A DNA stretch of 64,000 bases from Treponema sp. GTDB taxonomy: Bacteria > Spirochaetota > Spirochaetia > Treponematales > Breznakiellaceae. The notes below the pieces were generated by a model. The model was not told where the DNA came from. It saw nothing but the letters and a program-made list of their open reading frames with translations, and ran no database searches. The translations under genes were made by a program, and so were the position numbers. Location of the stretch: positions 444-64,443 of the forward strand of contig JAITFK010000023.1 in assembly GCA_031281555.1 (NCBI GenBank), given 5' to 3'. Below, piece after piece: positions 35,523-52,007 of the stretch (within the stretch, counting starts at the first letter, position 1; each line of letters begins with the position of its first letter).

Positions 35523-38500
35523 TTAATCATTCTCGTTATCATTGTCATTGTTTGATACGCCGGTGATACGAATCGCGTTTGCGCCGCCATCGCCGGTAAG
35601 ATACTGACGCAAAGCGTATAACAATGGAGGAGTACGATCACCTTCCGGTTTCGGAATGTCGAGTTGAATACGTGAAAAAAGTCTAATCCTTGATTGCGCA
35701 CATATTCCCACGACATTTTCAACTTGATCCGCCAATTCTTCGGTAACTTTTTGACGTGGCCACAAGATCATTTTGATTTCCGGATCTGACGATTCACGGG
35801 TGCGTAACAAGCCGAGCAGAAGTTCAAGCGGTTCGGCGGTAGAGCGAACCCAGTCGCGAACAGTCTCTCTGTTTTTTTTATCTTTTTTTGGGGGACAAGG
35901 CTTAACTTGTGAAAGCATTTCCTTAAGAACTTTCAGTATTGATTCAAGCTCCATAAATGAGAAATTATTAATAAAATTTTGTTCATGCCAGACGGTATAA
36001 GCAAAAACTCGTACAGCTTTCTCTGTCGGAGTTGATTTAAGTTTTGACAATATATCATGCTGCCATTCCTGCGACACGTCGCCAAGCGCGAAGCCGATGG
36101 CGCGATACTCACGAGATTGATCGTTTTCGACTTGCTGCATAATCCATTTAATGCAATTATTCTTTGTGTCTTTATGAAGGGAGGACAGTAGTGGCATTAA
36201 TCTTTGATTAAAAATATTTTCCGGAAGATTCTTTGACAGCATTGAAATTAATTCGTTAAACTTTTGTTTAAATTCAAGCGGAGCGTCCTCATCATTCAAA
36301 GAGCGGTTGTCAGCCCAAATTATCGGCATTCTGTTTTGCAGGCTTTTCTTCTTGAAATTACTTAATTTCCATTCTGCCCCTTTTGGAAGATGTTTTAATG
36401 TAGGCTTGGGTATCCGCTCATTCCATTTAGTTAACGACTCAAGTAACCAATTTAATAAATTAATTTCTTTACCTTGTATATCCTTCCAACATTCCAAATC
36501 TTTCCAAGATAAAGGCTTCGGATATTTTGGAGCAGGCGCATCAGTAATTTCTTCTTCTCTTTCCCATTTTGCCTTGACCGGAGGGAATTCTTCTTTTAGC
36601 GGTTCAAATACAAGACAGTATGGATCATCATCACCGTAGGTAAATGTCAAATTCAATTTGCAAACGGTATCTATATCAAGCGGGAATACAGGTGATTTAA
36701 GTTTTGCGGAGAATCCGACTTTCTCGTCGTTTTCGCCCTGCAAAAGTGGAAATTCATAAAATCGCTTTCCGGCGGGAAGCGTGAAGTTATCTTTAATTTT
36801 AATTGGAACAGGCTTGCCACGGATTGGTTCTATAATCGTATTACGCGAAACGAGATTATAATATTGGTAGCGTTCGCCAATCTTCACTTTGATTTTAAGT
36901 TCAGGCATATGATCACGCCAGAGCGGGATGTCTCCCGCCCTTTGTTGCAAATCATGAAAACGGGATCCGCCAACAACGGGGCTTTCAAAAAGATTAATAA
37001 GAAGACTAAATTGTCCGATTCGTTCATTCTTTTTAAGTATGTCAGGATTAATAAATTCAGGTGCTGTTGGCTGTGCTTTATCATACCAAATGCCTTTTTC
37101 ATCAACAGTGATTATTTCATAGTTTTTTAAGTCCGTACCATCAGGATCATTGTCAGAAATAATTACCGGGGGACAGCGTTCCCAATAATAACCCTTAGTT
37201 TCCGGAATGCGATCAATGAGTCTTTTATCTTCATCAGAGCGGGCGATGAGTTTTGTAGCGCAGGTTTTTCCGCCGATAGTATCAACAACCACAACGGTGA
37301 ATCCCTCGCTTATTATGGAATAATCAACCTTCTCAAAGACGGCCGCTACGCTTCGGGGCAGTGGTTCCGCTTTTGGGAAACTGGCATTGATGTTACGGCG
37401 GATGAGTTCAAGTTCAAAATCATTAAGAAAATCCGGAACCAGCCAAATGAGCGTACCGTCTGTAAAAGTTTCATGAAGTTTCGACGCAAAAGCACGGGCG
37501 GCTCGGTCAAGAATATGTATGTCTTTCTTTTCTTTGGAGAAGAAAAGATCGGCGAAAGAAATCGTCGCTTTAACATCGGAATGAAGAAAAACAGCATCTG
37601 AATTGAATAGTTCGAGGTTAAAAGTTTTATCTTTATTATTATCCCAATGCTGCCAAAGATAAGTTTCATTTAAAATACATGGTTTATTTTCTTCATATCC
37701 TTGTGAACTATTTTTTGAAACGAAATAACGCGGACGCAGGGCGGTAAAATCCACACAGACAGGTTCAGATATTTTTTCTGTTGTAAAATGGCGGACAATC
37801 TCTTTTTTTCTCTTTTGGAATACAAGAATTTCTCTAGGAATTTTCCAGGGAATTTCCTCAGGAATTTCCCAGGGTTTAATTTCAAATTTTTCATAGTCAA
37901 AGTAGACCGGCATATCGACGAAAATAAAATGACCATCAAAATATTTTTGTCCGTATCCGTATTCATAACTCCAGCGATATATTGTTTTTCTGCGGGCTTT
38001 AAAATCCAACAAGTCCTTATTAATGTCATCATCAAGCGTTTGCAGCCAACGCCAGGCGTCCCAGATACGGCGGTAATCGCGGTGCGACAAAAGAGTGTTG
38101 TTTGGCGGAAGGTTTTCCCAACGGCCTATGCTTTTCGCCTTGTCTCCAAGAAGCCAGGATTTGATTTTTGGAAGCAGTTCGTCTTCTTCTTTTTCTTTAA
38201 GACAATCATAACGCAATTCAAACAATTCAGCCAGGCGGGTAACGAACTCTTTCAAAAGACGATTTTCCGGAAGATCGATTGATTGAAAACGGCGTACAGC
38301 GTACAGATAAGGTTTGTCTTTAAGTTTTTCCCGGATGTTACGGCCCGGACGGTTACTTAGTTTGATAAAACTGTTTACATCCAATTCCCGTACCGCCCGG
38401 ACAGGCAATAACTCTTGTTTGCGGCGAGGACTTTCGTTGAGCGAACGGAACACACGCTTAACTGATTCGCGGGCATGATCTGCTATGCGCCAGAGGCGAT

Positions 38501-38798
38501 CATGAATTATTCCGTCATCCGGCTCCGCCATTTTAGCGAGGAATGTTGACAGAGGTTGCGGAAGCGGTTTGTTTGTTTTAGGGTCAAATTTGGCATTGAC
38601 ATAAAACCAGTTCATCTGTTCAAGAAAATCATGGGAAGCCCCGTCTTTTTTTCCAGCCTTCTCCTCCTCCTCATAAGAACGGTAAAGTTCAATCAAAGTC
38701 ATTTTTTTGAGGCTTTGCTTGAGTTTCTTTTTTAACCGTTTTCGAGTGTTTTTACCAGCTTTTATTTGAGCCGCTTTATGAGTTAATTTTTGAGTCAT
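35523..38798 (-). CDS. DUF2357 (McrC-like) protein fused to Hsp70-like and helical domains (CoCoNuT CnuCD-like)
   Basis: VRELD, DLPENRLLK.F, PPNN.LL.H.DYRRIW; then VCVDF, VPDFL.DF, PLPRSVAA, VVVVD, LWRDHMPEL, FTLPAG. Confidence 0.7.
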   Translation of the reverse strand: MTQKLTHKAAQIKAGKNTRKRLKKKLKQSLKKMTLIELYRSYEEEEKAGKKDGASHDFLEQMNWFYVNAKFDPKTNKPLPQPLSTFLAKMAEPDDGIIHDRLWRIADHARESVKRVFRSLNESPRRKQELLPVRAVRELDVNSFIKLSNRPGRNIREKLKDKPYLYAVRRFQSIDLPENRLLKEFVTRLAELFELRYDCLKEKEEDELLPKIKSWLLGDKAKSIGRWENLPPNNTLLSHRDYRRIWDAWRWLQTLDDDINKDLLDFKARRKTIYRWSYEYGYGQKYFDGHFIFVDMPVYFDYEKFEIKPWEIPEEIPWKIPREILVFQKRKKEIVRHFTTEKISEPVCVDFTALRPRYFVSKNSSQGYEENKPCILNETYLWQHWDNNKDKTFNLELFNSDAVFLHSDVKATISFADLFFSKEKKDIHILDRAARAFASKLHETFTDGTLIWLVPDFLNDFELELIRRNINASFPKAEPLPRSVAAVFEKVDYSIISEGFTVVVVDTIGGKTCATKLIARSDEDKRLIDRIPETKGYYWERCPPVIISDNDPDGTDLKNYEIITVDEKGIWYDKAQPTAPEFINPDILKKNERIGQFSLLINLFESPVVGGSRFHDLQQRAGDIPLWRDHMPELKIKVKIGERYQYYNLVSRNTIIEPIRGKPVPIKIKDNFTLPAGKRFYEFPLLQGENDEKVGFSAKLKSPVFPLDIDTVCKLNLTFTYGDDDPYCLVFEPLKEEFPPVKAKWEREEEITDAPAPKYPKPLSWKDLECWKDIQGKEINLLNWLLESLTKWNERIPKPTLKHLPKGAEWKLSNFKKKSLQNRMPIIWADNRSLNDEDAPLEFKQKFNELISMLSKNLPENIFNQRLMPLLSSLHKDTKNNCIKWIMQQVENDQSREYRAIGFALGDVSQEWQHDILSKLKSTPTEKAVRVFAYTVWHEQNFINNFSFMELESILKVLKEMLSQVKPCPPKKDKKNRETVRDWVRSTAEPLELLLGLLRTRESSDPEIKMILWPRQKVTEELADQVENVVGICAQSRIRLFSRIQLDIPKPEGDRTPPLLYALRQYLTGDGGANAIRITGVSNNDNDNEND

Positions 38799-38827: not shown

Positions 38828-41137
38828 TTAATTTGTTTCTTCTTCGGGCTTGTCTGGTGTTGAATTATCCTCAAGATAGTTTGCTGTTTGCCACATGAAC
38901 TGTCCGTAACCAAGTTCGCAGGCTAGTTCGAAGTCTTTGGCAAGATTAACAGGTTTATCGCCAATAGCGGTGTTGTTGATTAGTCCACGGATTTCCTCGA
39001 GACATTTGCCGCCTTTACTATTTCTATGGGTATCTATACCGCGCAGTTTTGGCATGACCTTCTGGACGAGCTGGTCTTCAAACGCTTTATGCATTGCGTC
39101 GTCAAGTTTAAAATTTGTTTCCCCATTCTTCGCGGCGCGGACTTTGGGATAGTTCGCCATATAGTATTCGATTGACTGCCATACCCTGTGCCCGATAGCG
39201 CGGCCCGCAACTGCCAGATAAGAATTAATTTTTTCAATATACTCTTTATATGGCGCAACATTATCCTTGATGTTTGAAACGTCTTTTTCCCACCAATTCT
39301 CCCAGTTTCCCCGAGGTAATGGTGAGAACTTATGAAATTTCTTCAAGTCTATTAATTCTTCACGGCTCTTTAATTTTACAGGACGCGGAAAGTGAATGAT
39401 GATAGAGCGATCCAAAACCTTGTCAGAAAGTGATTTTGTAGTTTCATCCTGGTTCATGGTTCCCGTCCAAAGAACATTACGGCCCAGGGGAAGATCATAA
39501 GGTTTCATCCCGGCGCCAATTTTAACAGGAAGCGAAGGCACTAACCCTTTCATTCCGCGCCGCAGTTCGAGTTTGCTCAGGAATTCCGCGAAGTAGAGTT
39601 CCGGATGGGCAAGATTCATTTCATCAAGCAGGACAAGGCAGACCGCGTCTTCCAATCCTGGATAGATCACCTGTGTTTCATTGCCATCTATTTTTTTTTC
39701 TTCCCATTTCTTCTGACTTTGAGCGAGTAAATGCAGTACAGGCTGAGCGTCGAATTTATTGTCAATTGAATTAAAGAAGCCAAGCATGGATTCCTGACTG
39801 TCCCAATTTGGCTGGACGGAGAGCGGCTCAAAGTAAAGACCGCCAAAGTGTGAGTACAGGCGCGGCAATTCGGATTTGCCTGTGCCTGATACGCCTGCAA
39901 GAATTGTTAACGGAGACCATTCCGAGGTTTTTAGCGCCGTATGGAACGCGTATAAAATACGAGAATTAAAATGCATTCCATATTCTTCACATTTTCTGCT
40001 AACACCCTCAAGCCAGTCAATCTCAGCAAGAACATTCATCTTGTTTATTCCCTTTGCCTCATCTGCATTTTTTGGTTCCTGTTTTTTATACTCCGGCGGC
40101 CTTTGTACTTTATCATCCCATGGTTTTTCGATTTCTTTATATCTGGCCTCAACTTCCGCGGGACGTTCATACGCCGCGCGAAGGCGATCCAGTTCGGCTT
40201 TGTACTCATTTGCCGCGTTTTCAAAAAGAGATGCCTTTTGCTCAAAGATTTTGTTCTCCGCTTCTAATCCGTTGTTTCTTAGCCGTAGGTCGTCAATTTC
40301 CGCGATATCGTCTCTGTTAGCGTCAATTTGTTTTTTGCGTTCATCCGCCAGCTTTGTTTGCCGTTCAACCTCCTTTTTAATTGATTCATACTGTTCGCGC
40401 ATTTCTTCGGTAGGACGGGTGGCGAGTTCTTCTCGAAGTCGGTTAAATTCGACTGCTTTGCTGTTGAGTTCTCGGATTACTTCAGCGGGATCTTTACCAT
40501 TGAGTTGCCGTTTCAATTGCTCTAAAGCGCCGGCAAGATCAGTTTGGATACGGAGGCTGTCGCGCAGACGGACAATTTCGTCTTTATATGACTGCCTTTC
40601 AGTTTCAAGTGATTTGCGCTCTTTTTCCAGCAGGGCTTCCAGCTTGTCATCCAACTCGTTATATTTTTTTTGCCATTGGTTTTCAAGAAGCTCTCCCTTG
40701 CGTTCCAGAATTTTTTCCGTAGTTTCAAGGTCAGTTTTGCGATTCTGGAGATCGCTCTGCTGAGCGGATATCGCACCTTTTTGATTTCCAAGTTCATTCC
40801 GCTCTACGCTCAGTTGTTTCCGCGACTCTTCAAGTTCTTTTCGCCACTCTTCCCGCTCTATGACAATTTCCGCGTGAATATGATCGCGTTCGGCTTGTTC
40901 GGCTTCTGCAACTTCATCCAGTCGTTTAATTTTAAATTTTGCGATTTCTTCTTCTAATACCGAGAGTTTCTTTTCGCGGGTCTCTGAAATCTCAGTCTCC
41001 AGTTTAATTCGTTTGTTATGCAATTCACCTTCCGCTTCTCTTTGGCGAATATAAAATTCTTCCTCACGTTTTTTTAAGTCCGCTTTTCCATCGGCAATTT
41101 GCCTCAGTAAAGCTTCTAATTTTGAAAATAATCCCAT
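38828..41137 (-). CDS. Coiled-coil McrB-like AAA+ GTPase (CoCoNuT CnuB-like)
   Basis: ~320-aa E/K/R-rich coiled coil; GVSGTGKS, VQPNW, LLDEMNLA, GTMNQDETT..LSDKVLDRS. Confidence 0.85.
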   Translation of the reverse strand: MGLFSKLEALLRQIADGKADLKKREEEFYIRQREAEGELHNKRIKLETEISETREKKLSVLEEEIAKFKIKRLDEVAEAEQAERDHIHAEIVIEREEWRKELEESRKQLSVERNELGNQKGAISAQQSDLQNRKTDLETTEKILERKGELLENQWQKKYNELDDKLEALLEKERKSLETERQSYKDEIVRLRDSLRIQTDLAGALEQLKRQLNGKDPAEVIRELNSKAVEFNRLREELATRPTEEMREQYESIKKEVERQTKLADERKKQIDANRDDIAEIDDLRLRNNGLEAENKIFEQKASLFENAANEYKAELDRLRAAYERPAEVEARYKEIEKPWDDKVQRPPEYKKQEPKNADEAKGINKMNVLAEIDWLEGVSRKCEEYGMHFNSRILYAFHTALKTSEWSPLTILAGVSGTGKSELPRLYSHFGGLYFEPLSVQPNWDSQESMLGFFNSIDNKFDAQPVLHLLAQSQKKWEEKKIDGNETQVIYPGLEDAVCLVLLDEMNLAHPELYFAEFLSKLELRRGMKGLVPSLPVKIGAGMKPYDLPLGRNVLWTGTMNQDETTKSLSDKVLDRSIIIHFPRPVKLKSREELIDLKKFHKFSPLPRGNWENWWEKDVSNIKDNVAPYKEYIEKINSYLAVAGRAIGHRVWQSIEYYMANYPKVRAAKNGETNFKLDDAMHKAFEDQLVQKVMPKLRGIDTHRNSKGGKCLEEIRGLINNTAIGDKPVNLAKDFELACELGYGQFMWQTANYLEDNSTPDKPEEETN

Positions 41138-43101
41138 CTTTCCACCTCCAAAAGTGTTTTTATAGTTGAATAAACCGATTTACGGATTTTTTTAATTTCA
41201 TCTTTTTTTAGAAACAAAGGTTCGTTTCCATGAGCGCTCAGTTTGTCAATCTCAGCGACATCATAAATAAATAACGGTTGGTATTCCGAAACTTTTTGCA
41301 AGATGTCTTTGTACACAAGAAGAAACGCAATCGCGCATGAGCCCAGGGTTTGATTGTCTCCTTGCAATGTTTGGGAAATCCTCCGCAGGTTGACCGTTTG
41401 CAAAGACTCAGGCAGTTTAGACTCAGGCGGTTTAACAAGGCCTGCCTTCATTGCGTTTGTCAGCGCATCGTCAATGAAACCGGAATTTCCCGCATCCGGA
41501 GGCAATGTTCCTGTAAGTATCTTTCTGAACATCGCCTGAAGCGCGGCATACAAATCATTGACGAACCAAAGCGCGTTATCCCCGTCCTTCCATGACAACC
41601 ATGATTGTTCCGCTTTTTTTAACCAATCCTGCATATTCTTTCCAAGTTGGTTGTAATTATGAAGACCAAATTCATTCTGAATGTTTGCACATGAGTCAAA
41701 CATTATATCAGCGATAAAATCTTTATCTGCCGCCGCAACGGGCGTGTCCGAAAAACGAATATCCGGCAGCAATGCGGTTACAATTTCCCTCATAAAAGCG
41801 TCTTCAGGCAATTTGGCTGTATTTTCCTTTGCCTTGCCCTTTCCGTGCCTTAGATCATCCCGTTTCTCTTTGATATTAAAAATCTTATTGATGAAGTCCG
41901 GATACTTCTTGACAATCCTGTGCAGAGGATGCGAAGGGTCGTTTTCCGCTATTAAAAGAGCGATACTAATGACTGTCGCCATATCCGCTTTGCCGCTAAG
42001 AAAATCGTCAAGTTTTCCTTTTAAAACCGGATAGAAACCTTTTTTCGGCAGGTCCAGCCCTGTTTTTTGTGCCGTCGCTTCCAATATGCTTGAATGTTTC
42101 CCGGAATCCGTAAATTTAAGCGTTTCGATCGCGGTATTGTATTGTCTTTGAATACAGGAATAGAACAAAGCCCATTCAAGCGCCGAATAAATCCGTCCAA
42201 TGGAACGGTATTGATTTTTTTGTCCGGGACGCAGACTATAAACCAATTTACCGTAACGTCCCAAATTTTTATCATTGTCAAACGGCTCTTTTGAGGTTAT
42301 AGATTCTTTGTTTATTTTCGGATTGGATAATCTTTGTTTCCAATTCATAAACCATTTGGCCAGATTTTCATTGTGTCCAAGAAGTTGAGAAAAGGAACTT
42401 TCAAGAATCAGTGAAAAGCCGCCGCCAAAAGGGTTGGCAATGCGGAATTCGCCGTCGCTTTTCTGTACAGCAATTAAGCACTCAAGATAGTACGGTTCCG
42501 GTTCATCGGCTATGGTTATTTGATTAATCGCCGGAATTCGCCGGTTGCCGTCAAAAAAACTTGAGCGTTTCTCCATCACCCGTAACGCGTAAATGACATC
42601 GCTGGTTTCCGGTTTTTTCCTTAAATAATTTTTATCATATGTGATTTTCAGGAAAAGTTTTTCATCTTTCTCTTCCTTTTTCAGCGGATTGTCTTCATCC
42701 AACAAATGCAAAAACGGCAGAATTTTTCCTGTAGCGAGTTCGCGAAAAGCTAGCGCTTTAATGATTATTGGTTCTTTTTCTGTCATCCATTTATCGCGTC
42801 TTTGATTAATGATTTCGTTATTTTCATCAATGAACGCCATATCCTTCAGGCGCAAGAGAACAATTTTAACCAGTTCAACAGGAATGCATATCTCCTGCGC
42901 CAGCGCTTTCGCGTCCCGCATACCGCAGGCATCAATTATTTTCAGAATGACACGCTCAAACATATTCAAACCGCCGCTCTTATCCGGTTTTGGCAGTGTA
43001 ACGCGATAAGCATGTACCGGCCACGCGAGTTTTTCTTTCCTCCCGATAATTTCACCGAAGGGATTATCCGGTTTGCCAAAATCAAGGAATCTCAAAGACA
43101 T
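41116..43101 (-). CDS. wHTH plus HEPN-like effector (CoCoNuT CnuE-like)
   Basis: N-terminal wHTH (FERVILKII...LAQEICIP.ELV..VL..L); HEPN-type RxxxxH RDDLRH; degenerate second motif KLSAHGN. Confidence 0.6.
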   Translation of the reverse strand: MSLRFLDFGKPDNPFGEIIGRKEKLAWPVHAYRVTLPKPDKSGGLNMFERVILKIIDACGMRDAKALAQEICIPVELVKIVLLRLKDMAFIDENNEIINQRRDKWMTEKEPIIIKALAFRELATGKILPFLHLLDEDNPLKKEEKDEKLFLKITYDKNYLRKKPETSDVIYALRVMEKRSSFFDGNRRIPAINQITIADEPEPYYLECLIAVQKSDGEFRIANPFGGGFSLILESSFSQLLGHNENLAKWFMNWKQRLSNPKINKESITSKEPFDNDKNLGRYGKLVYSLRPGQKNQYRSIGRIYSALEWALFYSCIQRQYNTAIETLKFTDSGKHSSILEATAQKTGLDLPKKGFYPVLKGKLDDFLSGKADMATVISIALLIAENDPSHPLHRIVKKYPDFINKIFNIKEKRDDLRHGKGKAKENTAKLPEDAFMREIVTALLPDIRFSDTPVAAADKDFIADIMFDSCANIQNEFGLHNYNQLGKNMQDWLKKAEQSWLSWKDGDNALWFVNDLYAALQAMFRKILTGTLPPDAGNSGFIDDALTNAMKAGLVKPPESKLPESLQTVNLRRISQTLQGDNQTLGSCAIAFLLVYKDILQKVSEYQPLFIYDVAEIDKLSAHGNEPLFLKKDEIKKIRKSVYSTIKTLLEVERWDYFQN

Positions 43102-46100
43102 GGCATTACCTTCCCTTTTTCACGGCATAAATTGAAAAAATTAACCAGTCCTGGAATGTATTTCCTTGCAAGGCTGTTATTCAATAAACCGGAATCACCG
43201 GCCGCTACCAGCAGTTTTTTCTGGCGGCTCATGGAAACATTCAAAAGGTTATCAAGGCAGAGGCGTCCAAATAATTTCCTCGCCTGTTTTTCAGGGTCTT
43301 CATCATTCTGTTTCCAGTCCTGCGGTAATGATCTGACCATGGAAAGAAAGACCACATCAAACTCCATGCTCTGGAAAGAATCAACCGTACCAACGTGAAG
43401 TCTTTTTTTATCATGCCTAATTCCTTCAAGATGTTCTTTAATGTGATCGGCCTGAGCTTTGTAGAACGAAATAACTCCGAAAGACAAGTTTTCTCCTTCT
43501 TTGGAATTCATCCATATTTTTATCTGTCCGGTAATGGCGGTTATTTCGGCAGGGCGAATCAGACTGGTTCCTTCCCGCTGATACCTGCCTTTTGAGGCGG
43601 GAATATCCAGCCAAACGGCAGGTTTGTTATCAGTACCCGACAAGTTGTGTTCAAAATCGCCTTCAGGTCTGCTTGAACGGAATTGTTCAGACTTGTCATA
43701 AAATTCGCTGCTGATAAAGTCTCCCAGAAGCGGATGCATACGGTGTTGTTTATCTAATGTGATATGACGCGTAATGCCGTCTTTCTTTTCTAATTCCTTA
43801 AGCCTTTCAGAGAATAAATATTGGAACATGGATTTTTTCAGCCAATCAACTTTTTCTTCTCCCGTCTCCCCTTCCTCCATTTGGCGGGCGACTTCGTCGT
43901 TAATGATATGCGGCAGCTGACGGTGATCTCCGACAAGAATAATACGTTTGCCCTGCGCCATAGGGATCATAAGATCGCGCGGAGAAACCCGGGCGGCTTC
44001 ATCCACAATCACATACTCAAACGGTTCCATCTTCTTTTTTTCTGTGACGCCTTTTTTATTTTGCATTAATATATTGACACTCTGTTGGCAGGTAGCGGCG
44101 AAAGCATAACTATAATCCGATACGGCATCAATCATACCATATTGATTTTCTTCAAGTTCAGCCAGGAATTCCGCAAGCGCCGCTGATTTTTTATCTTTGG
44201 CGGAAAAACCAGTCTCTTTAATTTTCTTGATTGCTTTTTCAGCCAGCATAAGAATTTCATCGTTTTGTTTTTCTACGCTAAATACAGGCGGAGCGGTAAT
44301 CTTAAGCATAAGTTTCTTTTTCAGCACGGCTAAATCTTTCAGGAACGGCGGAGAAACAGCATTATCAATCCATAAACTTGCCATGGACAGCAAGTCCCAC
44401 TCGTCTTTTTCAATTTCATTTTTTATTTTTTCATCATTTTTTAATTTTCCAAAGGCTTCAGCCGCCCGATCCGGTCCGTCATCAGCAAAACTTTCAGTAC
44501 GGATACGCAGGCGGTGCACGGCGTCAAGCAGCGGATTGGATTCACTGTTAAGAGTTTCTTCATGCGAGAGTCTTTTGGCAATATACGCGGTGCGGTGCGA
44601 AATATCTTCCCCTATAATTGTAACATCAAGAGAAGCAATTTTATTTGCAAGATTCGCAGCAAGCGCCCGCGTCGGCGCATTAATGTATTGCAGGCAGAGA
44701 TTTTTAATTTCCATTTCTTTTTCTACTTCTGCGATATTTAAATTTTTAGCGCGTAGTTCATTGGTTGTTTTTTCATAAAATTTCATCATTTCTTTTTCAA
44801 AGGCGCTATCATCGTTTTTATCGGCTCCTGAACGTTTCCCGAATTTCGGAATTGGTATGCCGTTAAGCCAATAACGATTTATCATATTCTCAACCGCGTC
44901 ATGCTGGAATCCGGTTAACAAAACCTGACCATTAATATTTATTTGCCGTTTGTCCGCAAGCTCATTCAAGCGTTCAAGAATTGCGGCAATAATAGTGGTC
45001 TTGCCGGTGCCCGGAGGTCCCTGGATAAGAGCGATGTCGGGCGTCGACAGGGCTATTTTAATTGCGTTTATTTGATTTTCAGTCGGCTGATATTCTCCGA
45101 AAACTTGTTTACGAACAAACGCCGTAAGCGTTTTTATTTCAGGCGGTTTGCAAGCCGGAGGGATATCACCTTTTTCTTCTATTATAAGGCCAAGATGCGT
45201 ACAAGCACAGCGGCCTTCAAGTATTGCCTTGCGCGCTGACCTTCGCCGTTTTATTTGTGTGATTTCACCTTTAAGCGAAAGAACGAACATTCCCGACGGA
45301 GGCGGCATCTTTGTTTCAACTTTAAGTTTTTTTGACTCCAAGTCATAAATTGTAAGAATTTTTGAATCGTTGTCGTAACCGGAAATCCTGAAATAAAGGC
45401 TTTTCTTCTCCTCTTTTCCCTGTTTCCCGATGATCTTTTCTATTTTTTCTTTCTTTTCAACATCTTTTTCAATGCCATTCACGAATTCCGCAAATTTTAA
45501 ATCTGCGTTTAGAAGATAATCCGGTAATTCATCAACCATTTCTATTTCTTCCACGCCGCCTGACTTCAATGCATTTTCAACTGAAGCTCTCGGTTCTAAA
45601 ATGCGGACAGAGACATCTCCGTCATTTTTCTGTTTGACATCACAATAACGCAGTACGTCAATATAACGAGCACGCTTTAGCAAAAGTTCGCCTTCAAAAT
45701 CGCCGAACTCGTCCCATTTCTTCAGGTAACTTCCCTCATTATTAATAAGATTGTTCATTTGCGCTTTGGTGAGTATCTGAATCTGCCCTGTCTTTGTCCA
45801 ATCGATAAATTTTAATTTTCCTCTGGCAAGACGCAGCGCCCTGTCGTTTTTGTCTTTTAGTTTGGTCAGACGGGTAGAAATATAAATTGACTTCCCGTCC
45901 GGCAATTGTGTTTCTGTGGCGACGAAGCGGATATTATCGCCTGTGATACAGAACGAGTTCTTTCTGGTTGGCTCAGGTTTTGGGGCGGAGACTTCGGGAT
46001 TTAATTGAGGCTCTTCAATATCAATGTTTTCATCTGTTTTCTCCATTGGATTATCTGCGTCTTCCTGATTATCTTTTGTTTCTTCTTCTTTTGCTTTCTC

Positions 46101-46592
46101 CTCCGACTCCGTTTTCAATTCGTCATCAATTGCTGGACCTGCGATGATAAAGAAGAAAAATTCATTACCGTGAAAAAAACAACAGCGAGTTTCAAGGTAT
46201 TTATAAAGATTCTGACCGCTAAGTTTACGCCCAACTTTCTCAATCATTTTCTCCACATATTCGTCCACGCCGACTTCAACATCTCCCATCTCCAGACATT
46301 CACCTGTAAAGAATTTAATTTGCAGTTCAATGCTACCATTGGCAGCCACGTTAGCAAACTGCGAAATCATAGCTCTTCCCGCAACAAGTTCATTGCCCAG
46401 ACGGCGGACATCTATCTCTACAACCGGCTTAACAAATATGACAGTATCTTTAAGACGAATTTCAAACTCACCCGGCCGTGTCGGACAGGCTTTAACGCCA
46501 AGAACCGGCTGCTCTTTCAAAAGCTTTGGGGAAAAGTCGGTTCTTTTGACGCGTATGGTCGTTGTATCAGCGGGAATATCGTCAAATTTCAT
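43092..46592 (-). CDS. UPF1-like superfamily 1 helicase (CoCoNuT CnuH-like)
   Basis: QGPPGTGKT, VDEAAR, GDHRQLP, QHRMHP, TVDSFQSMEFD, LNVSMSRQK. Confidence 0.88.
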   Translation of the reverse strand: MKFDDIPADTTTIRVKRTDFSPKLLKEQPVLGVKACPTRPGEFEIRLKDTVIFVKPVVEIDVRRLGNELVAGRAMISQFANVAANGSIELQIKFFTGECLEMGDVEVGVDEYVEKMIEKVGRKLSGQNLYKYLETRCCFFHGNEFFFFIIAGPAIDDELKTESEEKAKEEETKDNQEDADNPMEKTDENIDIEEPQLNPEVSAPKPEPTRKNSFCITGDNIRFVATETQLPDGKSIYISTRLTKLKDKNDRALRLARGKLKFIDWTKTGQIQILTKAQMNNLINNEGSYLKKWDEFGDFEGELLLKRARYIDVLRYCDVKQKNDGDVSVRILEPRASVENALKSGGVEEIEMVDELPDYLLNADLKFAEFVNGIEKDVEKKEKIEKIIGKQGKEEKKSLYFRISGYDNDSKILTIYDLESKKLKVETKMPPPSGMFVLSLKGEITQIKRRRSARKAILEGRCACTHLGLIIEEKGDIPPACKPPEIKTLTAFVRKQVFGEYQPTENQINAIKIALSTPDIALIQGPPGTGKTTIIAAILERLNELADKRQININGQVLLTGFQHDAVENMINRYWLNGIPIPKFGKRSGADKNDDSAFEKEMMKFYEKTTNELRAKNLNIAEVEKEMEIKNLCLQYINAPTRALAANLANKIASLDVTIIGEDISHRTAYIAKRLSHEETLNSESNPLLDAVHRLRIRTESFADDGPDRAAEAFGKLKNDEKIKNEIEKDEWDLLSMASLWIDNAVSPPFLKDLAVLKKKLMLKITAPPVFSVEKQNDEILMLAEKAIKKIKETGFSAKDKKSAALAEFLAELEENQYGMIDAVSDYSYAFAATCQQSVNILMQNKKGVTEKKKMEPFEYVIVDEAARVSPRDLMIPMAQGKRIILVGDHRQLPHIINDEVARQMEEGETGEEKVDWLKKSMFQYLFSERLKELEKKDGITRHITLDKQHRMHPLLGDFISSEFYDKSEQFRSSRPEGDFEHNLSGTDNKPAVWLDIPASKGRYQREGTSLIRPAEITAITGQIKIWMNSKEGENLSFGVISFYKAQADHIKEHLEGIRHDKKRLHVGTVDSFQSMEFDVVFLSMVRSLPQDWKQNDEDPEKQARKLFGRLCLDNLLNVSMSRQKKLLVAAGDSGLLNNSLARKYIPGLVNFFNLCREKGKVMPCL

Positions 46593-47950
46593 TTAACTAC
46601 CTCTTCAAAAATAAAAGCAAGATTTTCCGGAAACGGTTTTGTCCCCCGGACAGGTTGTACGGATTTTTTCGTAAAGTCTAAAAGCGCGTCATACTCTGTA
46701 TCATCATCGTTATGTTCAAAAGAGAAGGGGTTGAATAAACGATGCGGCAAAGAGAATTCGTTCGTGTCAGCGGAAACAATAATTTCCCAACGCTGCGTCT
46801 TTACTCGGACAAATGCCGGGCGCGGCTTGGCACAATACGGACATTTTTTATGGCTGTCCGCGAAGTAACTCATTTTGCAATTAGGGCAAAGCAGCGACTT
46901 GTCAGAGGCTCTTGTTAATTCAAACGCCCAAAACGCCATAGACGGACGCCGGTGCGGTTTTGTCCGCCCTGTGCCGAAAGTATCCTGAAAAAGCAGCCTT
47001 AACTCCGGCGTTGCCGTAAGTTCGCGCGGCAGACCGCAGACTGAGGCATTTGAATCGTCATCCTTATCATCAACGAAGGGCAGAAAACCGGCATAAGCTT
47101 TTTCATTCAAATCGTCGGGCGCTCCGTCCGCCGCAGGTTCGGCATCCCAGCCGTTTTCCTCATCGTTAGGTTTCAGTACATTTTTACCTATGAACGGATG
47201 ACATAAAGCGATTGTTGTAAAAGCCAGAACCGCAAACGCCCAGCAATCTGTGCGAGGGCGGGATTGATCCAGCCCCCGGATTATTTCCGGCGCGCCGTAA
47301 TGAGGCGTGTAAACTGATTTTCCGCCTTTAGCCAATTCAAAACGCAGGTTGTCCGCGTCGATCAGCCAAACATCGAACTTCTCCCCTTCGTCGGCAAATA
47401 CATTCTCCGGCGATATATCGCCATAAACCAGACCGGCGCAGTGGAGACGGGCAAGAATCGAAGCGCATTTCGCAAGCGCATAAAGACGGCGGCGTGTTGA
47501 ACCAGTCTGGGCATAGTGAAAAAGATTCAAGGCAAAGTCTTTGTCGGGAATATTCATCAGCCATTGGGGAAGCGGCTGTTTGTCAAGTTCAATTTTTGTT
47601 TTTCCATTTAAGTTAAAATGACTGAACGGTTTCATTCCGTTCAAAAGGCGCATCACATACCCGGGCTCATCACCCGGCTTATCCCGTAAAATAGCGAGCG
47701 GCATTGATATAGGGATACGCGGCGGCAATGGCAAAAGACGTATGTTCTGGAAACGTTTGCGTAAACCCGCGGTATTATCAAGTTCTCCGGCGGCGTTTAA
47801 CGGTTGTTTGACAGCCAAATCGTCATCACTAGTACGGTATACAACGCCTTGTCCGCCGCGGGCGAGTTCCCTGCCCAGACAGTGCAGGTAGTCATATTCA
47901 TCGGCAAGATGCTTGGGAGATTCAACGCCGGGTATATAACGCTTATTCAT
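46589..47950 (-). CDS. Ser/Thr protein kinase with C-terminal Zn ribbon (TerY-P triad)
   Basis: LARGGQGVVY, LAVK, YGDISPEN, IDADN, YGAPE; CPNC...CPYC; ATG overlaps the PP2C stop. Confidence 0.88.
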   Translation of the reverse strand: MNKRYIPGVESPKHLADEYDYLHCLGRELARGGQGVVYRTSDDDLAVKQPLNAAGELDNTAGLRKRFQNIRLLPLPPRIPISMPLAILRDKPGDEPGYVMRLLNGMKPFSHFNLNGKTKIELDKQPLPQWLMNIPDKDFALNLFHYAQTGSTRRRLYALAKCASILARLHCAGLVYGDISPENVFADEGEKFDVWLIDADNLRFELAKGGKSVYTPHYGAPEIIRGLDQSRPRTDCWAFAVLAFTTIALCHPFIGKNVLKPNDEENGWDAEPAADGAPDDLNEKAYAGFLPFVDDKDDDSNASVCGLPRELTATPELRLLFQDTFGTGRTKPHRRPSMAFWAFELTRASDKSLLCPNCKMSYFADSHKKCPYCAKPRPAFVRVKTQRWEIIVSADTNEFSLPHRLFNPFSFEHNDDDTEYDALLDFTKKSVQPVRGTKPFPENLAFIFEEVVK

Positions 47951-48662
47951 CTTCCGGCTCCCTGCGAAAAAGGCACGCAATGGTTTTGTCATCGCTGTGC
48001 TTGGGCACAGGCCAGTCCTCAAGCATTATCCGCGTATTGCGCGAGGCGGACACGCAGGCTGAATCAACGGCGTGTGTAATAAACCCGCGGATAAATGCGT
48101 CGGTATCCGTTAAATCGTCTGAAACGCCGTCTGTGCAAAGCAGAACGGCGCGGCAAAGTTCTTCCTGTAAGGTTTGAAACCGCCACTCTTTGTCCGTGGT
48201 TTTTTCTGAAAGCGCGGACGTAATATTTGAAAAGCCGTTCGCTTTATCTTCGGCAAGCGATAAAACCGTGTCGTCATTTTTCAGAACAGCGATTAAGCCG
48301 TCGCCGAGCATTCCCGTTCTGATCAATCCGTCGGAAAGCCGAAAGGCGAACAAACAGGTAGCCGAACAATCACGGGACTCAAGCGGAGCAATAAAGGAAA
48401 GCCAGTTGCTTTTAATTTTGTCATACAAAAATGTTTGATCTATTTCTTTTTTATCGCGGCAGGCGTAAACTGCGCAAGTCACAGCGCGGCAGGCGGCGCT
48501 GCTTCCGAAATCGGAATAAGTTTTTGAACCCAGACCGTCGGAAACGATGACACCGTCGCCCCATGTGTTATGAAACGCTTTCCACGCGTCCTGATTTGGT
48601 TTGCCTTCCCGAATATGACCGGGACCAATGACGCTTGCGCCAAAACTTTTCCATAATGTCAT
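47943..48662 (-). CDS. PP2C-family phosphatase (TerY-P triad)
   Basis: SVIGPGH...NQDA, VSDGLGS, LGDG, CTDG, DDKT. Confidence 0.9.
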   Translation of the reverse strand: MTLWKSFGASVIGPGHIREGKPNQDAWKAFHNTWGDGVIVSDGLGSKTYSDFGSSAACRAVTCAVYACRDKKEIDQTFLYDKIKSNWLSFIAPLESRDCSATCLFAFRLSDGLIRTGMLGDGLIAVLKNDDTVLSLAEDKANGFSNITSALSEKTTDKEWRFQTLQEELCRAVLLCTDGVSDDLTDTDAFIRGFITHAVDSACVSASRNTRIMLEDWPVPKHSDDKTIACLFRREPEDE

Positions 48663-48673: not shown

Positions 48674-49120
48674 TTAATTCCAGCCGTCCAGCGCGGCGAA
48701 TAAATCCTCGGCGGAGAATACGTCCTTTCCTTTTAGGCTTGCGTCAGCGCCAATCTTTATGACGCGGAGTGTATCAGGCATTAACTTCCTCTTCCATCGT
48801 TTCAAATCCGTCTCATCATTACGCGTCCAGAATCCGTCTGTGAAGAGCAGAACCTTGCCATCAATCTGTTCGCCCAATAGTTCAATTAACGCCTTGGCGT
48901 TTGCCGCGCCTTTACAGTCAAGCATTTCTTCCGGATATTCATTGTCAGAAACCCATTCGACAATCCGCGCTTCATTGCTCCATGCGATCAATTTAATTTC
49001 CCCTTTGCCGTATCCAAGGCGGAAATACTGTTCAATTGTCCGCGCCATGCCGCGCGTAATAAAACACTTTCCGCCTTCCGACATACTGCCGGATATGTCA
49101 CAAATCAAATAAAGAGTCAT
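48674..49120 (-). CDS. Short vWA-domain protein
   Basis: MIDAS CDISGS, LFTDG, IKIGADA; RBS-like AAGGG upstream. Confidence 0.75.
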   Translation of the reverse strand: MTLYLICDISGSMSEGGKCFITRGMARTIEQYFRLGYGKGEIKLIAWSNEARIVEWVSDNEYPEEMLDCKGAANAKALIELLGEQIDGKVLLFTDGFWTRNDETDLKRWKRKLMPDTLRVIKIGADASLKGKDVFSAEDLFAALDGWN

Positions 49121-49163: not shown

Positions 49164-49883
49164 TTACCAGTAACCTCCGTCTTCTTCAGATGAATTTGAT
49201 GATGCCGGAATATTATTCGGATTTTGCGATTTGCTGCGGGTGGTTACCGACATTGTCACCTTGCGGAAGAACTCGCGTATATTTTTCGCGTCCGCCGCTT
49301 GAAACACTTTATTCGGGACTTTATTGCCGTTTACTTCAGCCAGTACCGGAGTTTGGGAGATGAACTTTTCAAGAACCTTTGTGCCCGGCTCTTCCCCTAT
49401 ACCCATTGCCATGAAAAAACACTTGGAAGAGCGGCCGTCGGTAATTAAAGATTCCAGCGGTCCTTCCCAACTATCGGTCGGCGCTCCGTCTGAAACCAAC
49501 ACCACCGTCGGACGATACGCACGGGATGGTATGATCTCTTTGTCTTCTATCAAAGTTTTTGCTTTTAAAAACGCTTCCCCCATCGGCGTACCGCCATCAG
49601 CCATCATGTTCGTCCATTTTACAGTCGAGGCTGTTGTCGGCATAAGGAAGTTATTCGCCGTACCGCCAAAGGTGATTATTGAAACCAGAAATTCAGTCTC
49701 CATTTTTTCTTCATCGGCAAACGAATCAATCATTTGTTTGACGGCTTCATTTAAAACCTGAATCTTCGATGATTCGCCCCCGACGCCTTCATTCATTGAG
49801 CCGCTTACATCCAGCAAAAGTAAAACCGGTAATGGTTTTGCTTTAGATACGGTGAATTTGGTTGGATCAAAAACAGTTTGCAT
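49164..49883 (-). CDS. TerY-like vWA protein
   Basis: LPVLLLLDVSGSM, GGTPMG.A, YRP.VVLVSDGAPTD; AAGGAG RBS before ATG 49883. Confidence 0.88.
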   Translation of the reverse strand: MQTVFDPTKFTVSKAKPLPVLLLLDVSGSMNEGVGGESSKIQVLNEAVKQMIDSFADEEKMETEFLVSIITFGGTANNFLMPTTASTVKWTNMMADGGTPMGEAFLKAKTLIEDKEIIPSRAYRPTVVLVSDGAPTDSWEGPLESLITDGRSSKCFFMAMGIGEEPGTKVLEKFISQTPVLAEVNGNKVPNKVFQAADAKNIREFFRKVTMSVTTRSKSQNPNNIPASSNSSEEDGGYW

Positions 49884-49943: not shown

Positions 49944-50825
49944 TTAACTATTTTTCCTGATTTTTTTTATAAAAGTATTAATTGTACGGCTTGCACTTTC
50001 CTCCCTAACACCGCAGGATTCTGCTATTTCCCTTGCTGTAGGAACAGTACGGTTTTCTTTGTAGCCTTCAAATATTTGCCTATTTATAAAGGAAACGCCG
50101 GAAATGACCTTTTCTATAAGCCTTATATCGCCCAGGGCCTTTAAAACTTGCGCTGTTAAGAGTTTAGAGAGAATCGGTTTTAACCGATCCTGCTGTTTTT
50201 GAAACGCCGCGTCTATAGTCTGAAGATAAGTCTTTACGGCCGCTTCATCTGTCAAAACGTCATTCGGCGAACTTGTTTTGTCGGCAATTAAATCGAATAA
50301 TTCGCCCTTTTTGCCGTCTTTTTCCATTATTGGGACGCTGCCCGATTGAACATATATATCCCGGTTTATCGCAATCGCTTCAAACGCTTTTTCGGGCGTT
50401 ATGTTTAAGACATCGGCGATTCTATTTACAAACCTGCTTTCATCAGGCTCCTCGCCGCATATTTTTTCATATTTAGCGATGTATCGGATTATTTGATCTG
50501 TTTTTTGCTCGAGCGTAATTCCGCTGCGCGTATCAGATATTTCCTCCTTAGCTTTTTGTGCAGATATTGTTTTTTTAAGCGCAGTATTAAAATAATTCAG
50601 GAAAGCGCCGCATTCAACTTTATATGATTTTATACACGCTTTTGCGGAAAGGACTATCTCATAACCAATTTTGCAAAAGTCTTTTCTTGTAAGCGATAAA
50701 AGCTCAGCGAGATCAGCAAGGAAACGCCTTTCTTCTACAATAAAAAGTTCTTTGTCTTTAATACGGTCTATTCTAAACAACGGGGATTCGTTTATAAGCT
50801 TTTCCAGTTCCCTGGGCGTCTTCAT
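49944..50825 (-). CDS. Divergent sigma-70 family (group 3-like) factor
   Basis: Region 2-like CIKSYKVECGAFLNYFNTALKK; region 3-like GEEP...IADVLNIT.EK...ELFDLIAD; region 4 HTH TAREIAESCGVREESASR. Confidence 0.6.
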   Translation of the reverse strand: MKTPRELEKLINESPLFRIDRIKDKELFIVEERRFLADLAELLSLTRKDFCKIGYEIVLSAKACIKSYKVECGAFLNYFNTALKKTISAQKAKEEISDTRSGITLEQKTDQIIRYIAKYEKICGEEPDESRFVNRIADVLNITPEKAFEAIAINRDIYVQSGSVPIMEKDGKKGELFDLIADKTSSPNDVLTDEAAVKTYLQTIDAAFQKQQDRLKPILSKLLTAQVLKALGDIRLIEKVISGVSFINRQIFEGYKENRTVPTAREIAESCGVREESASRTINTFIKKIRKNS

Positions 50826-50834
50826 TGACTATCT

Positions 50835-51455
50835 CTATTCGGAAAGTATTGTATCGAGTATTTTTAAGGCCGAATCACCATCTACGCACTCTAAAGTGTT
50901 AACAATGGAGTTTAGATAAAACAGAGCCGACATATCAAACAGTTCGGCATTGAAAGGCTTATTATCCTTGTTAAAATCAACCTTTCCGTAAATAATATTT
51001 TTGATATCCGCCTTGAAAAACCTCTGAGCAAAGTTTAGCGCTGAAAACATGATAATTGGCAGCGATTTTGTACCGTAGGTAATGTCGGCATAGACAGCCG
51101 CGCTTTCGACAAATTCGCTTAGTATTTCTTTGAATAGTTTTTCTTGTACTTCACGGCTCTCATTATGCGGCGTAGATAAAATACTGTACTCAATTTTAGC
51201 TCCCAGATTTGAATTTATTTTTTCAAGTTCTCTTTTATATTCACCGGTATTTCTGTCACTGTTACCGTTGATGTCTTCTTTCTTGAGTAGAACAACTTTT
51301 ACGTCGTCGTCTTTTCTTAATGTACAAGCCAGAACCCCATTAATGGGGAAAATTACTTCCCCATTGTATTCAATCGTGCTATTGCCGTTGACTTTATAAC
51401 AAAGAGTGTCAAGCCGATCTTTCATCATAATATTGCAAAAAACTATTTTTTTCAT
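50835..51455 (-). CDS. Stand-alone CARF-domain protein (TM1812/Csx1-N-like)
   Basis: VYADITYGTKSLP CARF motif, then AL.FA...IKNIIYG...DMS.L; AAGGAG RBS. Confidence 0.75.
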   Translation of the reverse strand: MKKIVFCNIMMKDRLDTLCYKVNGNSTIEYNGEVIFPINGVLACTLRKDDDVKVVLLKKEDINGNSDRNTGEYKRELEKINSNLGAKIEYSILSTPHNESREVQEKLFKEILSEFVESAAVYADITYGTKSLPIIMFSALNFAQRFFKADIKNIIYGKVDFNKDNKPFNAELFDMSALFYLNSIVNTLECVDGDSALKILDTILSE

Positions 51456-51972
51456 TTTATAGAAACTCCTTTGCTAACATGGCAGCTTTTTACTACTACC
51501 TCAAAAATTTTCATTGTTATTTTTTTTTACCAGATCATAATACTATATAGTAACAAATTTTGCTTAAATTAACACTTTTTTATAGAAAAACATATACAAA
51601 GTGCCTTCAATGACCATGGTATAAAAAATAGAAACTCTAAATTGCATATTTTACAACAAACTAATTTTTGTTTCAATTTGTATTTTTAGGTTGAAAGTGC
51701 AATTTGGTATTTACAAACAGTTTATTATTTCTCTGTTTTTGAAAATATGGCTTCCAAAAAGACGACTAACTGTTTACATCCTAAACCTTTGTTTGAACAA
51801 TTTCAAATTACAAAAATCACGTTATGCGTAGCTAAAAAAAATTTATCCTCAATTTTTAAAACAATCTTTTACTGAAAACATACAAATATTCTAAACCAAG
51901 AGACATGACATAAATGAGATAAATCTCAAGAGTGGATGACAATAGCAATGTAACAAACAACCTTACCTGCCA

Positions 51973-52000
51973 TTGACAATAAATCATTTTTATATAAAAT
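51973..52000 (+). promoter_or_regulatory. Sigma70 promoter of the MoxR-vWA operon, probably leaderless
   Basis: TTGACA-16nt-TAAAAT-7nt-ATG. Confidence 0.6.
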
Positions 52001-52007
52001 AAAACCC

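Follow-up and report, generated by a model that had tools for sequence, protein, structure and literature searches.

What do two small genes at the head of a treponemal defence operon do, and do they act together? CARF domains are known to gate fused nucleases and other effectors, to work as ring nucleases, and to form part of transcription factors made of a single chain. The stretch considered here, called the window, covers 64,000 nucleotides (nt) of Treponema sp. (assembly GCA_031281555.1, contig JAITFK010000023.1, positions 444 to 64,443). It contains a gene for a stand-alone CARF protein of 206 amino acids (aa), followed on the same strand, after a gap of 9 nt between the open reading frames (ORFs), by a gene for a 293-aa protein resembling sigma factors. 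The stop codon of the latter lies 60 nt from the ATG of a TerY gene (position 49883), which is preceded by a ribosome-binding site and opens a defence operon. The initial annotation, made from the sequence alone, had given both spacings, and both agree with the coordinates. As argued below, the combination of a predicted CARF-based anti-sigma factor, a dedicated sigma factor and a candidate promoter is real, conserved and apparently undescribed. The full model, in which a ligand-gated CARF anti-sigma factor releases the sigma factor onto the promoters of the gene pair (the cassette) and of the operon, has in our estimate a probability of about 0.6. The narrower claim, that the CARF protein binds a working sigma factor reading this promoter motif, we consider quite likely.

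The pairing of the two genes is obligate, far beyond chance. Two sets of loci were collected, one anchored on the CARF gene (the best 80 of 122 loci from a CARF alignment search, three of which break off too early to judge) and one on the sigma gene (48 metagenome loci, three of which begin inside or at this gene). A sigma gene detected by hidden Markov model lies directly downstream of the CARF gene in 76 of the 77 evaluable CARF-anchored loci; four of these sigmas are broken, two being split by frameshifts and two being C-terminal remnants. The remaining locus (L059) has a 251-aa ORF grouped with the other sigmas by BLAST. Conversely, the CARF gene is directly upstream in 43 of 45 evaluable sigma-anchored loci, and the two exceptions are short sigma fragments. 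The sigma gene is also present in all 8 additional loci from the host's own family and in all 16 loci of a phylum sample, the profile used for the latter having included some related sequences. The co-occurrence check proposed in the initial annotation thus shows the pair to be conserved elsewhere. In one distant case (L171, 77 bits), the ORF after the CARF-only gene is long and unmatched by the sigma profiles, so some CARF2-only subfamilies may lack the pairing.

Cassettes were found in records of Spirochaetota, Bacillota, Deferribacterota, Fibrobacter and Cloacimonadota. The distribution is patchy, with 9 of 89 genomes of the family and 14 of 401 genomes of the phylum. One genome (G363) contains three separate cassettes, one of them about 13 kb downstream of a Cas10 gene. 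In two loci (L063, L065) most of the sigma gene has been lost by an internal deletion and the CARF frame is extended; both keep the downstream motif described below, and L065 keeps a RavA-ViaA operon too. Scans of viral contigs with the CARF or sigma alignment gave no relative, and the PHROGs search gave no match. The pair in record MT835511.1, named 'phage' and marked unverified, sits in a defence-island-like stretch and was not counted as a case of phage carriage.

The CARF ORF carries the sequence DITYGTKSLP, and according to the ORF list and profile scans it is not fused to HEPN, helix-turn-helix (HTH) or AAA domains. The PADLOC profile CARF2--CARF (PDLC01820) covers residues 1-205 of 205 with E-value 4.8e-77, a full-length match, and the CARF-only protein described from the sequence is confirmed. 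The family itself is already catalogued as a profile, and relatives are labelled 'TM1812 family CRISPR-associated protein' in GenBank. The closest named relatives are spirochaetal (Treponema primitia, 72% identity). The AlphaFold model has a pLDDT (local distance difference test, predicted) of 95. The closest structure is the CARF domain of Marinitoga Csx1-Crn2 (Z 15.0, root-mean-square deviation (rmsd) 4.3, 192 residues aligned), and there are structural matches to Sis0811 (Z 12.3) and Sso2081 (Z 10.7). Csx1 and Csm6 effectors have a fused HTH-HEPN nuclease, and here the protein stops after the CARF helices. Nor is it fused to AAA+ and HTH domains as in RtcR-like proteins. It has the size of Crn1-type ring nucleases (CARF-only, less than 250 aa), but these are encoded with type III CRISPR systems, whereas 3 of 101 loci have Cas6 and type III genes directly after the cassette. 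Longer forms of this CARF with a fusion were looked for and none was found, which is weak evidence.

The predicted nucleotide pocket is formed by D124, T126, G128 and K130 of motif II (D-x-T-x-G-x-K/R) together with Y156 and G157, and is conserved. In 96 non-redundant sequences, D124 and T126 are conserved in 100%, and G128 and K130 in 95%. Other near-invariant residues in this set, besides the YG motif, are M11, Y20, E76, D174, L178 and L181. The mean conservation of the pocket positions, which we picked from motifs I and II plus the YG motif, is 0.82 compared to 0.57 for the whole protein, and this is the most conserved part of the CARF protein.

The 293-aa protein is, by its sequence and predicted fold, a divergent member of the sigma70 family, and in the model proposed below it would bind core RNA polymerase and direct promoter-specific initiation. 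The layout comprises sigma2 (residues ~5-100), sigma3 (~100-160), a region 3.2 linker, and the sigma4 HTH (~262-292). The TIGR02937 profile gives E-value 4.7e-7 with 29.6 bits against the cut-off of 42.9, SigBFG gives E-value 4.5e-5, also under the curated cut-off, and no Pfam sigma family matches the window protein, one relative matching Sigma70_r3 weakly. These scores are consistent with divergence. A sequence search of PDB gave weak sigma matches. In the Foldseek search all 50 matches listed are sigma factor chains or entries for sigma with RNA polymerase (best E-value 9.7e-4). Alignments by hhalign to the sigma70 proteins of the same genome have probabilities 59-87% and E-values 9e-5 to 4e-6; they run collinearly over regions 2.3, 3 and 3.2, and 4.2 in one alignment out of three. 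In structural comparison, residues 5-100 align to SigI6 (Z 7.5, rmsd 3.2, 90 aligned) and residues 200-292 to domain 4 of SigA (Z 6.6, rmsd 1.8, 62 aligned), both Z values being middling, the former so for a helical protein; residues 51-98 align to a SigH with rmsd 1.5. Together these comparisons bear out the sigma fold with regions 2, 3 and 4 that had been read from the sequence. A sigma3 domain is missing from the ECF (extracytoplasmic function, group 4) sigmas; the window protein has one, which together with the 3.2 linker can be aligned to SigB and to the genome's own sigmas, so it is not of this type; sigma3 is absent in 12 of 109 locus copies. Over these 109 loci the conserved positions are E56, F75 and Y78 in region 2.2/2.3, and S279 and R280 in region 4.2. 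The tryptophan dyad of region 2.3 is missing, and the predicted template modelling score (pTM) of the whole model is low, 0.39. The family has 462 representatives at E-values of at most 1e-10 among 50%-identity clusters, mostly annotated as 'hypothetical protein'.

Modelled as two CARF chains and a single sigma chain, the complex scored 0.86 (0.84, 0.86 and 0.86 in separate runs), whereas the best of three controls scored 0.00. Of 157 solved complexes, 116 reach the mark used here, as do 2 of 215 mismatched pairs; these counts apply only roughly to a 2:1 prediction with self-made alignments. The runs share at least 88% of contacts, and the pLDDT of the partners is at least 70. A sequence search of PDB with the CARF protein gave no match, and thus a memorised solved complex is unlikely. 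The outcome of this modelling, which the initial annotation had also suggested, supports binding of the sigma factor by the CARF protein.

On the CARF side, the predicted interface consists of the C-terminal helices 174-205 of both chains, with residues 23-27 and 145-151. On the sigma side, it consists of the first long helix 23-44, the region 2.2 helix (50-62) that immediately precedes the region 2.3 motif, and residues 108-139, so that the grip is on region 1.2/2.2. The region 2.2 contacts are residues 51, 52, 55, 58, 59 and 62. E56 is absent from the listed contacts; in our reading it is the glutamate of the region 2.2 motif, by an ungapped count back from Y68 along the genome's own sigma sequences, where the hhalign alignment is gapped. 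Region 2.2 contacts the beta' coiled coil and is blocked by anti-sigma factors such as RseA; blocking of this region and direct sensing are established anti-sigma strategies (PMC4598750). None of the pocket residues is among the predicted contacts, which leaves room for allosteric control.

Near-identical bipartite sequences, P1 and P2, are found upstream of the CARF gene and at the end of the sigma gene (Table). The consensus is AAAAnTGTTAAG-N16-nCTATATA, or in matrix form AAAAnTGT(T/C)AA(G/C), 16 nt, nCTATATA. The matrix was seeded by eye from the alignment of sigma gene ends and trained on these regions only (29 of 93 non-redundant). Of 101 independent CARF-upstream regions, 31 exceed 12 bits; the corresponding rates are 0.4% for shuffled sequences and 2.5% for 200 regions upstream of other genes. 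If the CARF gene has a small gene in front of it, the motif lies before that small gene instead, and it was also observed in loci fetched later. P1 and P2 are the top two sites in the 2.49-Mb genome, and no site in block-shuffled genomes exceeds 19 bits; the regulon here is therefore probably confined to this island. The -35 pentamer is the same upstream and downstream in 27 of 33 loci having both sites. It also corresponds to the recognition helix of sigma region 4.2 in 74 of 78 cases: ExSxSR is found with GTTAA (47), KxDASR with GTCAA (14), and EGYISN with ATCAA (13), and 4 cases are off-pattern. The GTTAA form is kept across hosts from Spirochaetota, Bacillota and Deferribacterota, and tracks the sigma, not the host. 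From its position and this covariation, the motif is likely a promoter read by the cassette sigma.

An unseeded two-box expectation maximisation on the flanking regions settled on features of coding sequence and was discarded as a source of promoters. A scan for generic sigma70 promoters reported 12 sites against 8.1 expected, P1 and P2 not being among those reported on the minus strand. One locus (L023:8281-8514) has four tandem copies of the motif about 80 nt apart, and pairs with the same spacing occur in three others (L009, L011, L016). In 30 loci (e.g. L101:2568-2879) a gene for an unannotated family of ~105 aa lies directly upstream of the CARF gene, behind the motif. Searches of Pfam, NCBIfam, PHROGs and the ESM Atlas gave no match to this family, which is a candidate third component.

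The genes downstream of the cassette were surveyed in 101 loci with at least 1.2 kb of downstream sequence; close relatives are included, and the counts are not those of independent events. TerY-P-led operons were found in 34 loci, RavA/ViaA-like operons of MoxR and vWA genes in 18, other operons with UPF1-like helicases in 18, and Cas6 with type III CRISPR in 3. Rarer classes are Abi_2 (3 loci), CBASS phospholipase (2), prokaryotic viperin (2) and ThiC-like radical SAM (2), with 19 others. Since these defence operons are interchangeable, the cassette behaves as a portable regulatory head and not as part of one system. The initial annotation had inferred a dedicated sigma factor controlling the operon of the window. 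Indeed, the motif faces this operon; however, the module is not operon-specific, as the cassette heads many defence systems. Most copies lie outside CRISPR loci, but some are within type III loci. A type III-B locus downstream of the pair in one genome (G052) was rejected as sigma-controlled, no motif site facing its cas genes.

Several of these operons deserve mention in their own right. The RavA/ViaA-like operon (18 Treponema loci, e.g. L028, L031, L032, L034) consists of genes for a MoxR ATPase, a small ORF and a vWA protein, and the promoter motif is usually present; the C-terminal part of the ATPase gives an Lcl_C-like match. This is a candidate uncharacterised defence system. In Clostridia-type genomes (L005, L008, L009, L011, L017, L019, L020, L024, and also L014 and L026) a UPF1-like helicase of ~840 aa and an unannotated protein of ~480 aa are encoded under the same motif, sometimes with a ThiC-like radical SAM gene and a 185-aa ATP-grasp-like gene. 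The 585-aa protein P0157 is a fusion of this sigma with prokaryotic viperin (NF038283 above the cut-off). Viperin genes flank the cassette in four loci (L008, L039, L060, L146), in three of which (L008, L039, L146) they are preceded by the motif.

The following mechanism can be proposed. At rest, the cassette would be expressed at a low level, and the CARF dimer would hold the sigma factor inactive as an anti-sigma factor, the predicted 2:1 grip being that of CARF residues 174-205 on sigma helices 23-44 and 50-62. The CARF protein would then be a Csx1 cut off after the helix leading into HTH-HEPN, with the sigma factor docking in place of the effector. In Csx1-Crn2, binding of cyclic tetra-adenylate (cA4) via motif II turns the CARF domains by ~30 degrees against the helical domain that comes after them (PMC11317161), the place at which the sigma factor is modelled here. 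By analogy, an alarm nucleotide in the pocket may twist the CARF dimer and open the grip. The freed sigma factor with RNA polymerase would read P1 and P2 (GTTAAG-N16-CTATATA), as suggested by the position of the motif and its covariation with the recognition helix. Transcription from P1 would create positive feedback, yet it would also resupply the anti-sigma factor and shut the response down as the ligand falls. The defence operon would be expressed from P2 on alarm.

A number of observations weigh against this model. The glycine-rich motif I (LGKG in Csx1-Crn2), which in Csx1 closes over cA4 (PMC11317161), is replaced by (C/V/S)(N/D/T)(I/L)PMK in the CARF family, and motif II also stabilises the dimer, so that its conservation is no proof of ligand binding. 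The whole predicted CARF interface is no more conserved than the average (0.55 versus 0.57), only a core of D174, F179, Y180, L181 and F146 being conserved, and the contact residues on the sigma side differ between clades. When the window and four close relatives are removed from the training set, P1 is still the first site in the genome, and P2 is joint third. The correspondence between the -35 pentamer and region 4.2 amounts to about two clade-level switches on the tree, and is suggestive only, not proof of co-evolution. No site above 12 bits was found in 31 of 109 sigma loci, including the intact CRISPR-embedded ones L076 and L077; some siteless loci are without flanking DNA and some are divergent, the CRISPR-embedded ones among them. 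Finally, sources of the ligand are rare. In a survey of the genomes of 50 of the 80 CARF loci, mostly metagenome-assembled, with three having adjacent CRISPR left out, Cas10 was detected in 4 and SMODS in 5 of the 50 genomes. Neither was found in the 83%-complete assembly containing the window, nor in G212, G483 and G130, three of the five closed or nearly closed genomes.

Within the family of the host, Cas10 occurs in one of nine cassette genomes. A match to PF22335 in the genome of the window (27 bits) was rejected as Cas10; the 417-aa protein that contains it appears to start with a receiver domain of the response-regulator type. RtcR is absent from this genome, and RtcB is on another contig. 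The operon of the window ends in a gene for a second CARF protein, Can1-like, and no cyclase was found in the assembly, which is 83% complete. For RtcR-type CARFs at CoCoNuT loci, the proposed signal consists of products of RNA degradation bearing a 2',3'-cyclic phosphate (PMC11090510). As the cA4 source is mostly missing from cassette genomes, an oligoadenylate-like ligand need not come from Cas10. The ligand would most likely be an oligoadenylate, and this is the weakest step of the model. [quoted passage not shown] Tentatively, the cassette could be a widespread one-step switch for many defence operons answering a nucleotide alarm that is made without Cas10 or a CD-NTase and would represent another signal or come from another synthase. 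Orphan Can1-like nucleases in CoCoNuT operons might be switched on by this alarm as well.

The replacement of motif I and the rarity of cyclic oligoadenylate synthases in cassette genomes would also be explained if the CARF protein were an anti-sigma factor with a vestigial or structural pocket, and release occurred by proteolysis, by phosphorylation (e.g. by the TerY-P kinase) or through a CARF-binding phage protein. Small uncharacterised genes are often first in the transcription unit, as is the ~105-aa family, and are possible input factors. However, conservation in the CARF protein is highest at the pocket residues, and no protease or kinase is consistently found with the pair, TerY-P occurring in only a third of the loci surveyed downstream (34 of 101), so we consider this explanation unlikely. 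Another possibility, quite improbable in our view, is the opposite logic, where the ligand-bound CARF protein activates or stabilises the sigma factor in the manner of Crl, or the ligand tightens inhibition and its loss induces the regulon. A precedent is c-di-GMP, which tightens RsiG-WhiG inhibition. The complex was predicted without a ligand, so the model may represent either ligand state, and the invariant-like E56 is outside the listed contacts. On the other hand, the contacts on the same helix (51, 52, 55, 58, 59, 62) would be hard to reconcile with binding to RNA polymerase, and CARF ligands known to date turn defences on.

The initial annotation had named two roles for the CARF protein beside a dedicated sigma factor, anti-sigma factor or ring nuclease. 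In the latter case it would be a Crn1-like enzyme, of the type that cleaves cA4 to A2>p, clearing the activator of CARF effectors, e.g. the Can1-like nuclease, and merely co-transcribed with the sigma gene. Known ring nucleases include CARF-only proteins of less than 250 aa (10.1101/2024.09.24.614671), Sis0811 and Sso2081 are among the structural matches, a Can1-like gene closes the operon of the window, and some copies are in type III loci. But the CARF gene is tied to the sigma gene, not to CARF effectors or Cas10, the prediction of the complex passes, and no CARF effector was seen in the fetched stretch of most downstream operons (RavA-ViaA, helicases, viperin). We regard a ring nuclease as slightly less probable again than the opposite logic, since most genomes have no Cas10 and motif I is replaced; a dual role, as ring nuclease and anti-sigma factor, may exist. 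The branch with an anti-sigma factor and a dedicated sigma factor is supported by the conserved pairing, the complex prediction, and the cassette-linked motif tracking the recognition helix. The last alternative concerns the 293-aa protein, which might be a decayed sigma acting as a motif-binding repressor, or as a toxin sequestering RNA polymerase with the CARF protein as antitoxin. It scores under every curated sigma cut-off, has lost the tryptophan dyad and has a low pTM, and release of CalpS leads to growth arrest in E. coli. Conservation of E56, F75, Y78, S279 and R280 across 109 loci, and the bipartite motif with -35/-10 geometry tens of nt upstream of start codons, speak against decay, which we regard as very improbable. 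The ligand-gated anti-sigma factor remains the preferred reading.

The cassette is followed by a continuous run of nine genes on the same strand, from TerY to position 33755 (Table). By the definitions of PMC11090510, this operon fits a type III-A CoCoNuT with duplicated vWA: it has the NxD McrB-like GTPase, DUF2357 McrC, UPF1-like helicase and TerY-P triad. Of two further hallmarks, a pair of HEPN domains in CnuE and an Hsp70-like domain in CnuC, the signs here amount to one RxxxxH motif noticed by eye, with no match in the profile scans. Extended type III-A CoCoNuTs have a duplicated vWA and a variable cassette slot (PMC11090510). In two other loci (L029, L043) the Can1-like CARF nuclease gene lies between the two vWA genes, whereas the copy in the window ends the operon; this shift fits the variable slot.

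Table. Features of the cassette, its candidate promoters and the downstream operon in the window
Feature	Coordinates	Strand	Basis and remarks
Candidate sigma-dependent promoter P1	51543..51579	-	AAAAGT-GTTAAT, 16 nt, ACTATATAG; 87 nt before the CARF ATG; would make the cassette autoregulatory
20-codon ORF overlapping CARF start	51452..51514	-	Probable remnant of ~150-aa gene preceding CARF in relatives; weak
Stand-alone CARF2-clade CARF, 206 aa	50835..51455	-	ORF, profile and fold; predicted dimeric anti-sigma factor
Divergent sigma70-family factor, 293 aa	49944..50825	-	Profiles, Foldseek, hhalign, structure alignment
Candidate sigma-dependent promoter P2	49918..49954	-	AAAATA-GTTAAG, 16 nt, ACTATATAA; overlaps sigma stop codon; points into defence operon
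TerY-like vWA, first gene of type III-A CoCoNuT operon	49164..49883	-	Domain and PADLOC profiles
Second, short vWA-like protein	48674..49120	-	Sequence inspection; no Pfam match; duplicated-vWA arrangement of extended type III-A CoCoNuTs
PP2C phosphatase (TerY-P triad)	47943..48662	-	Profile
Ser/Thr kinase with C-terminal zinc ribbon (TerY-P triad)	46589..48022	-	Profile; true start probably ATG near 47950
UPF1-like SF1 helicase (CnuH)	43092..46592	-	Profiles
Probable CnuE effector, 661 aa	41116..43101	-	One RxxxxH motif by eye; no profile match
McrB-like GTPase (CnuB), 769-aa ORF	38828..41137	-	Inspection; long charged N-terminal region, NxD motif
DUF2357 McrC-like protein (CnuC)	35523..38798	-	E-value 9e-5, just under cut-off
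Can1/Card1-like CARF with PD-(D/E)xK nuclease, last operon gene	33755..35506	-	Profiles

The 20-codon ORF that overlaps the beginning of the CARF gene is similar to the N-terminal part of an unannotated family (~150 aa) with a conserved KCGHVG motif, although the match is weak (7 bits). The gene is intact upstream of the CARF gene in nine loci, and two others (L004, L085) appear to keep its 3' end. With a 5' remnant in the window and the 3' end in these loci, this gene seems to decay repeatedly. A divergent pair (52008-54389, plus strand) encodes a MoxR-type AAA protein (AAA_5) and a DUF2201 vWA-metallopeptidase; the AAA_5 gene is in two overlapping frames (52008-52709 and 52642-53223), and the split, close to six consecutive C, probably reflects a frameshift or an assembly slip. 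The GC content at 50000-60000 is 29-35% compared to ~42%, and the region contains genes for a DUF4116 protein, an AAA ATPase and a PcfJ-like protein, consistent with an acquired island. An Rfam search of the window gave no match, and repeats in the window were uninformative.

In the literature searched, whose coverage is partial, no description of a stand-alone CARF with a sigma70 factor was found, in line with the initial annotation, which had considered the pairing plausibly undescribed outside CRISPR; the neighbourhood may have been noted before. The main text of PMC11090510 names sigma only as sigma54, and its four supplements have no match to 'sigma'. The passages on sigma in PMC4012209, PMC11229360, PMC6546367, PMC12839542 and 10.1101/2024.09.24.614671 do not describe such a pair. 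If the model is correct, a CARF domain serving as an anti-sigma factor would put the fold to a new use, and no shorter path from a nucleotide alarm to a transcription programme would be possible. It would suggest a likely function for catalogued, unexplained stand-alone CARFs labelled as CRISPR-associated, though most copies considered here are outside CRISPR loci. The question of which signal CARF proteins detect in CoCoNuT and other defence islands without a cyclase would become testable as well: together with the 37-bp promoter, the two genes are a ready reporter for finding it, and the motif could be used to pick co-regulated, uncharacterised defence genes.

Among known systems, the situation resembles CalpL-CalpT-CalpS of type III CRISPR, where an oligoadenylate-sensing input controls a dedicated sigma factor via an anti-sigma factor. 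That system has three proteins, with a SAVED sensor, a Lon protease, irreversible cleavage and an ECF-like sigma (10.1101/2024.05.08.593097). In contrast, the cassette has two proteins and no protease, the CARF protein itself would be the anti-sigma factor, the sigma usually keeps sigma3, and most copies are outside CRISPR loci. Neither a SAVED-Lon protease of the Calp type nor a separate cleavable anti-sigma factor recurs as a family beside the pair in 128 loci. In Myxococcus xanthus, the sigma/anti-sigma pair DdvA-DdvS governs a multi-system defence island with CBASS and type III CRISPR, but DdvA is a transmembrane zinc-bundle/TPR-CHAT anti-sigma factor freed by proteolysis (PMC11506125), whereas the anti-sigma factor of the cassette would be a soluble CARF protein. 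RtcR-like CARF-AAA-HTH proteins also place a CARF at the 5' end of a CoCoNuT operon and are proposed to link a nucleotide or RNA-end signal to transcription. However, they are single-chain sigma54 enhancer-binding ATPases (PMC11090510), while the CARF of the cassette is of the CARF2, Csx1-like kind, without ATPase or HTH and with its own sigma70-type partner. Csa3 (CARF-wHTH) likewise exerts CARF-based transcriptional control of defence genes; it is archaeal and binds DNA itself via the fused HTH, with no sigma factor involved (PMC6546367). The closest fold, with the same motif II, is that of the CARF-HEPN proteins of the Csx1/TM1812 family (Marinitoga Csx1-Crn2, PDB 8y7g; PMC11317161). The CARF of the cassette differs in having no HTH-HEPN, in the replaced motif I, and in that the helix leading into the effector is the predicted sigma-binding surface. 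Finally, RsiG-WhiG of Streptomyces is also a soluble anti-sigma factor acting on a group 3 sigma and gated directly by a cyclic nucleotide; there, the nucleotide is c-di-GMP, the fold is unrelated, the role is developmental, and the ligand stabilises the inhibited complex.

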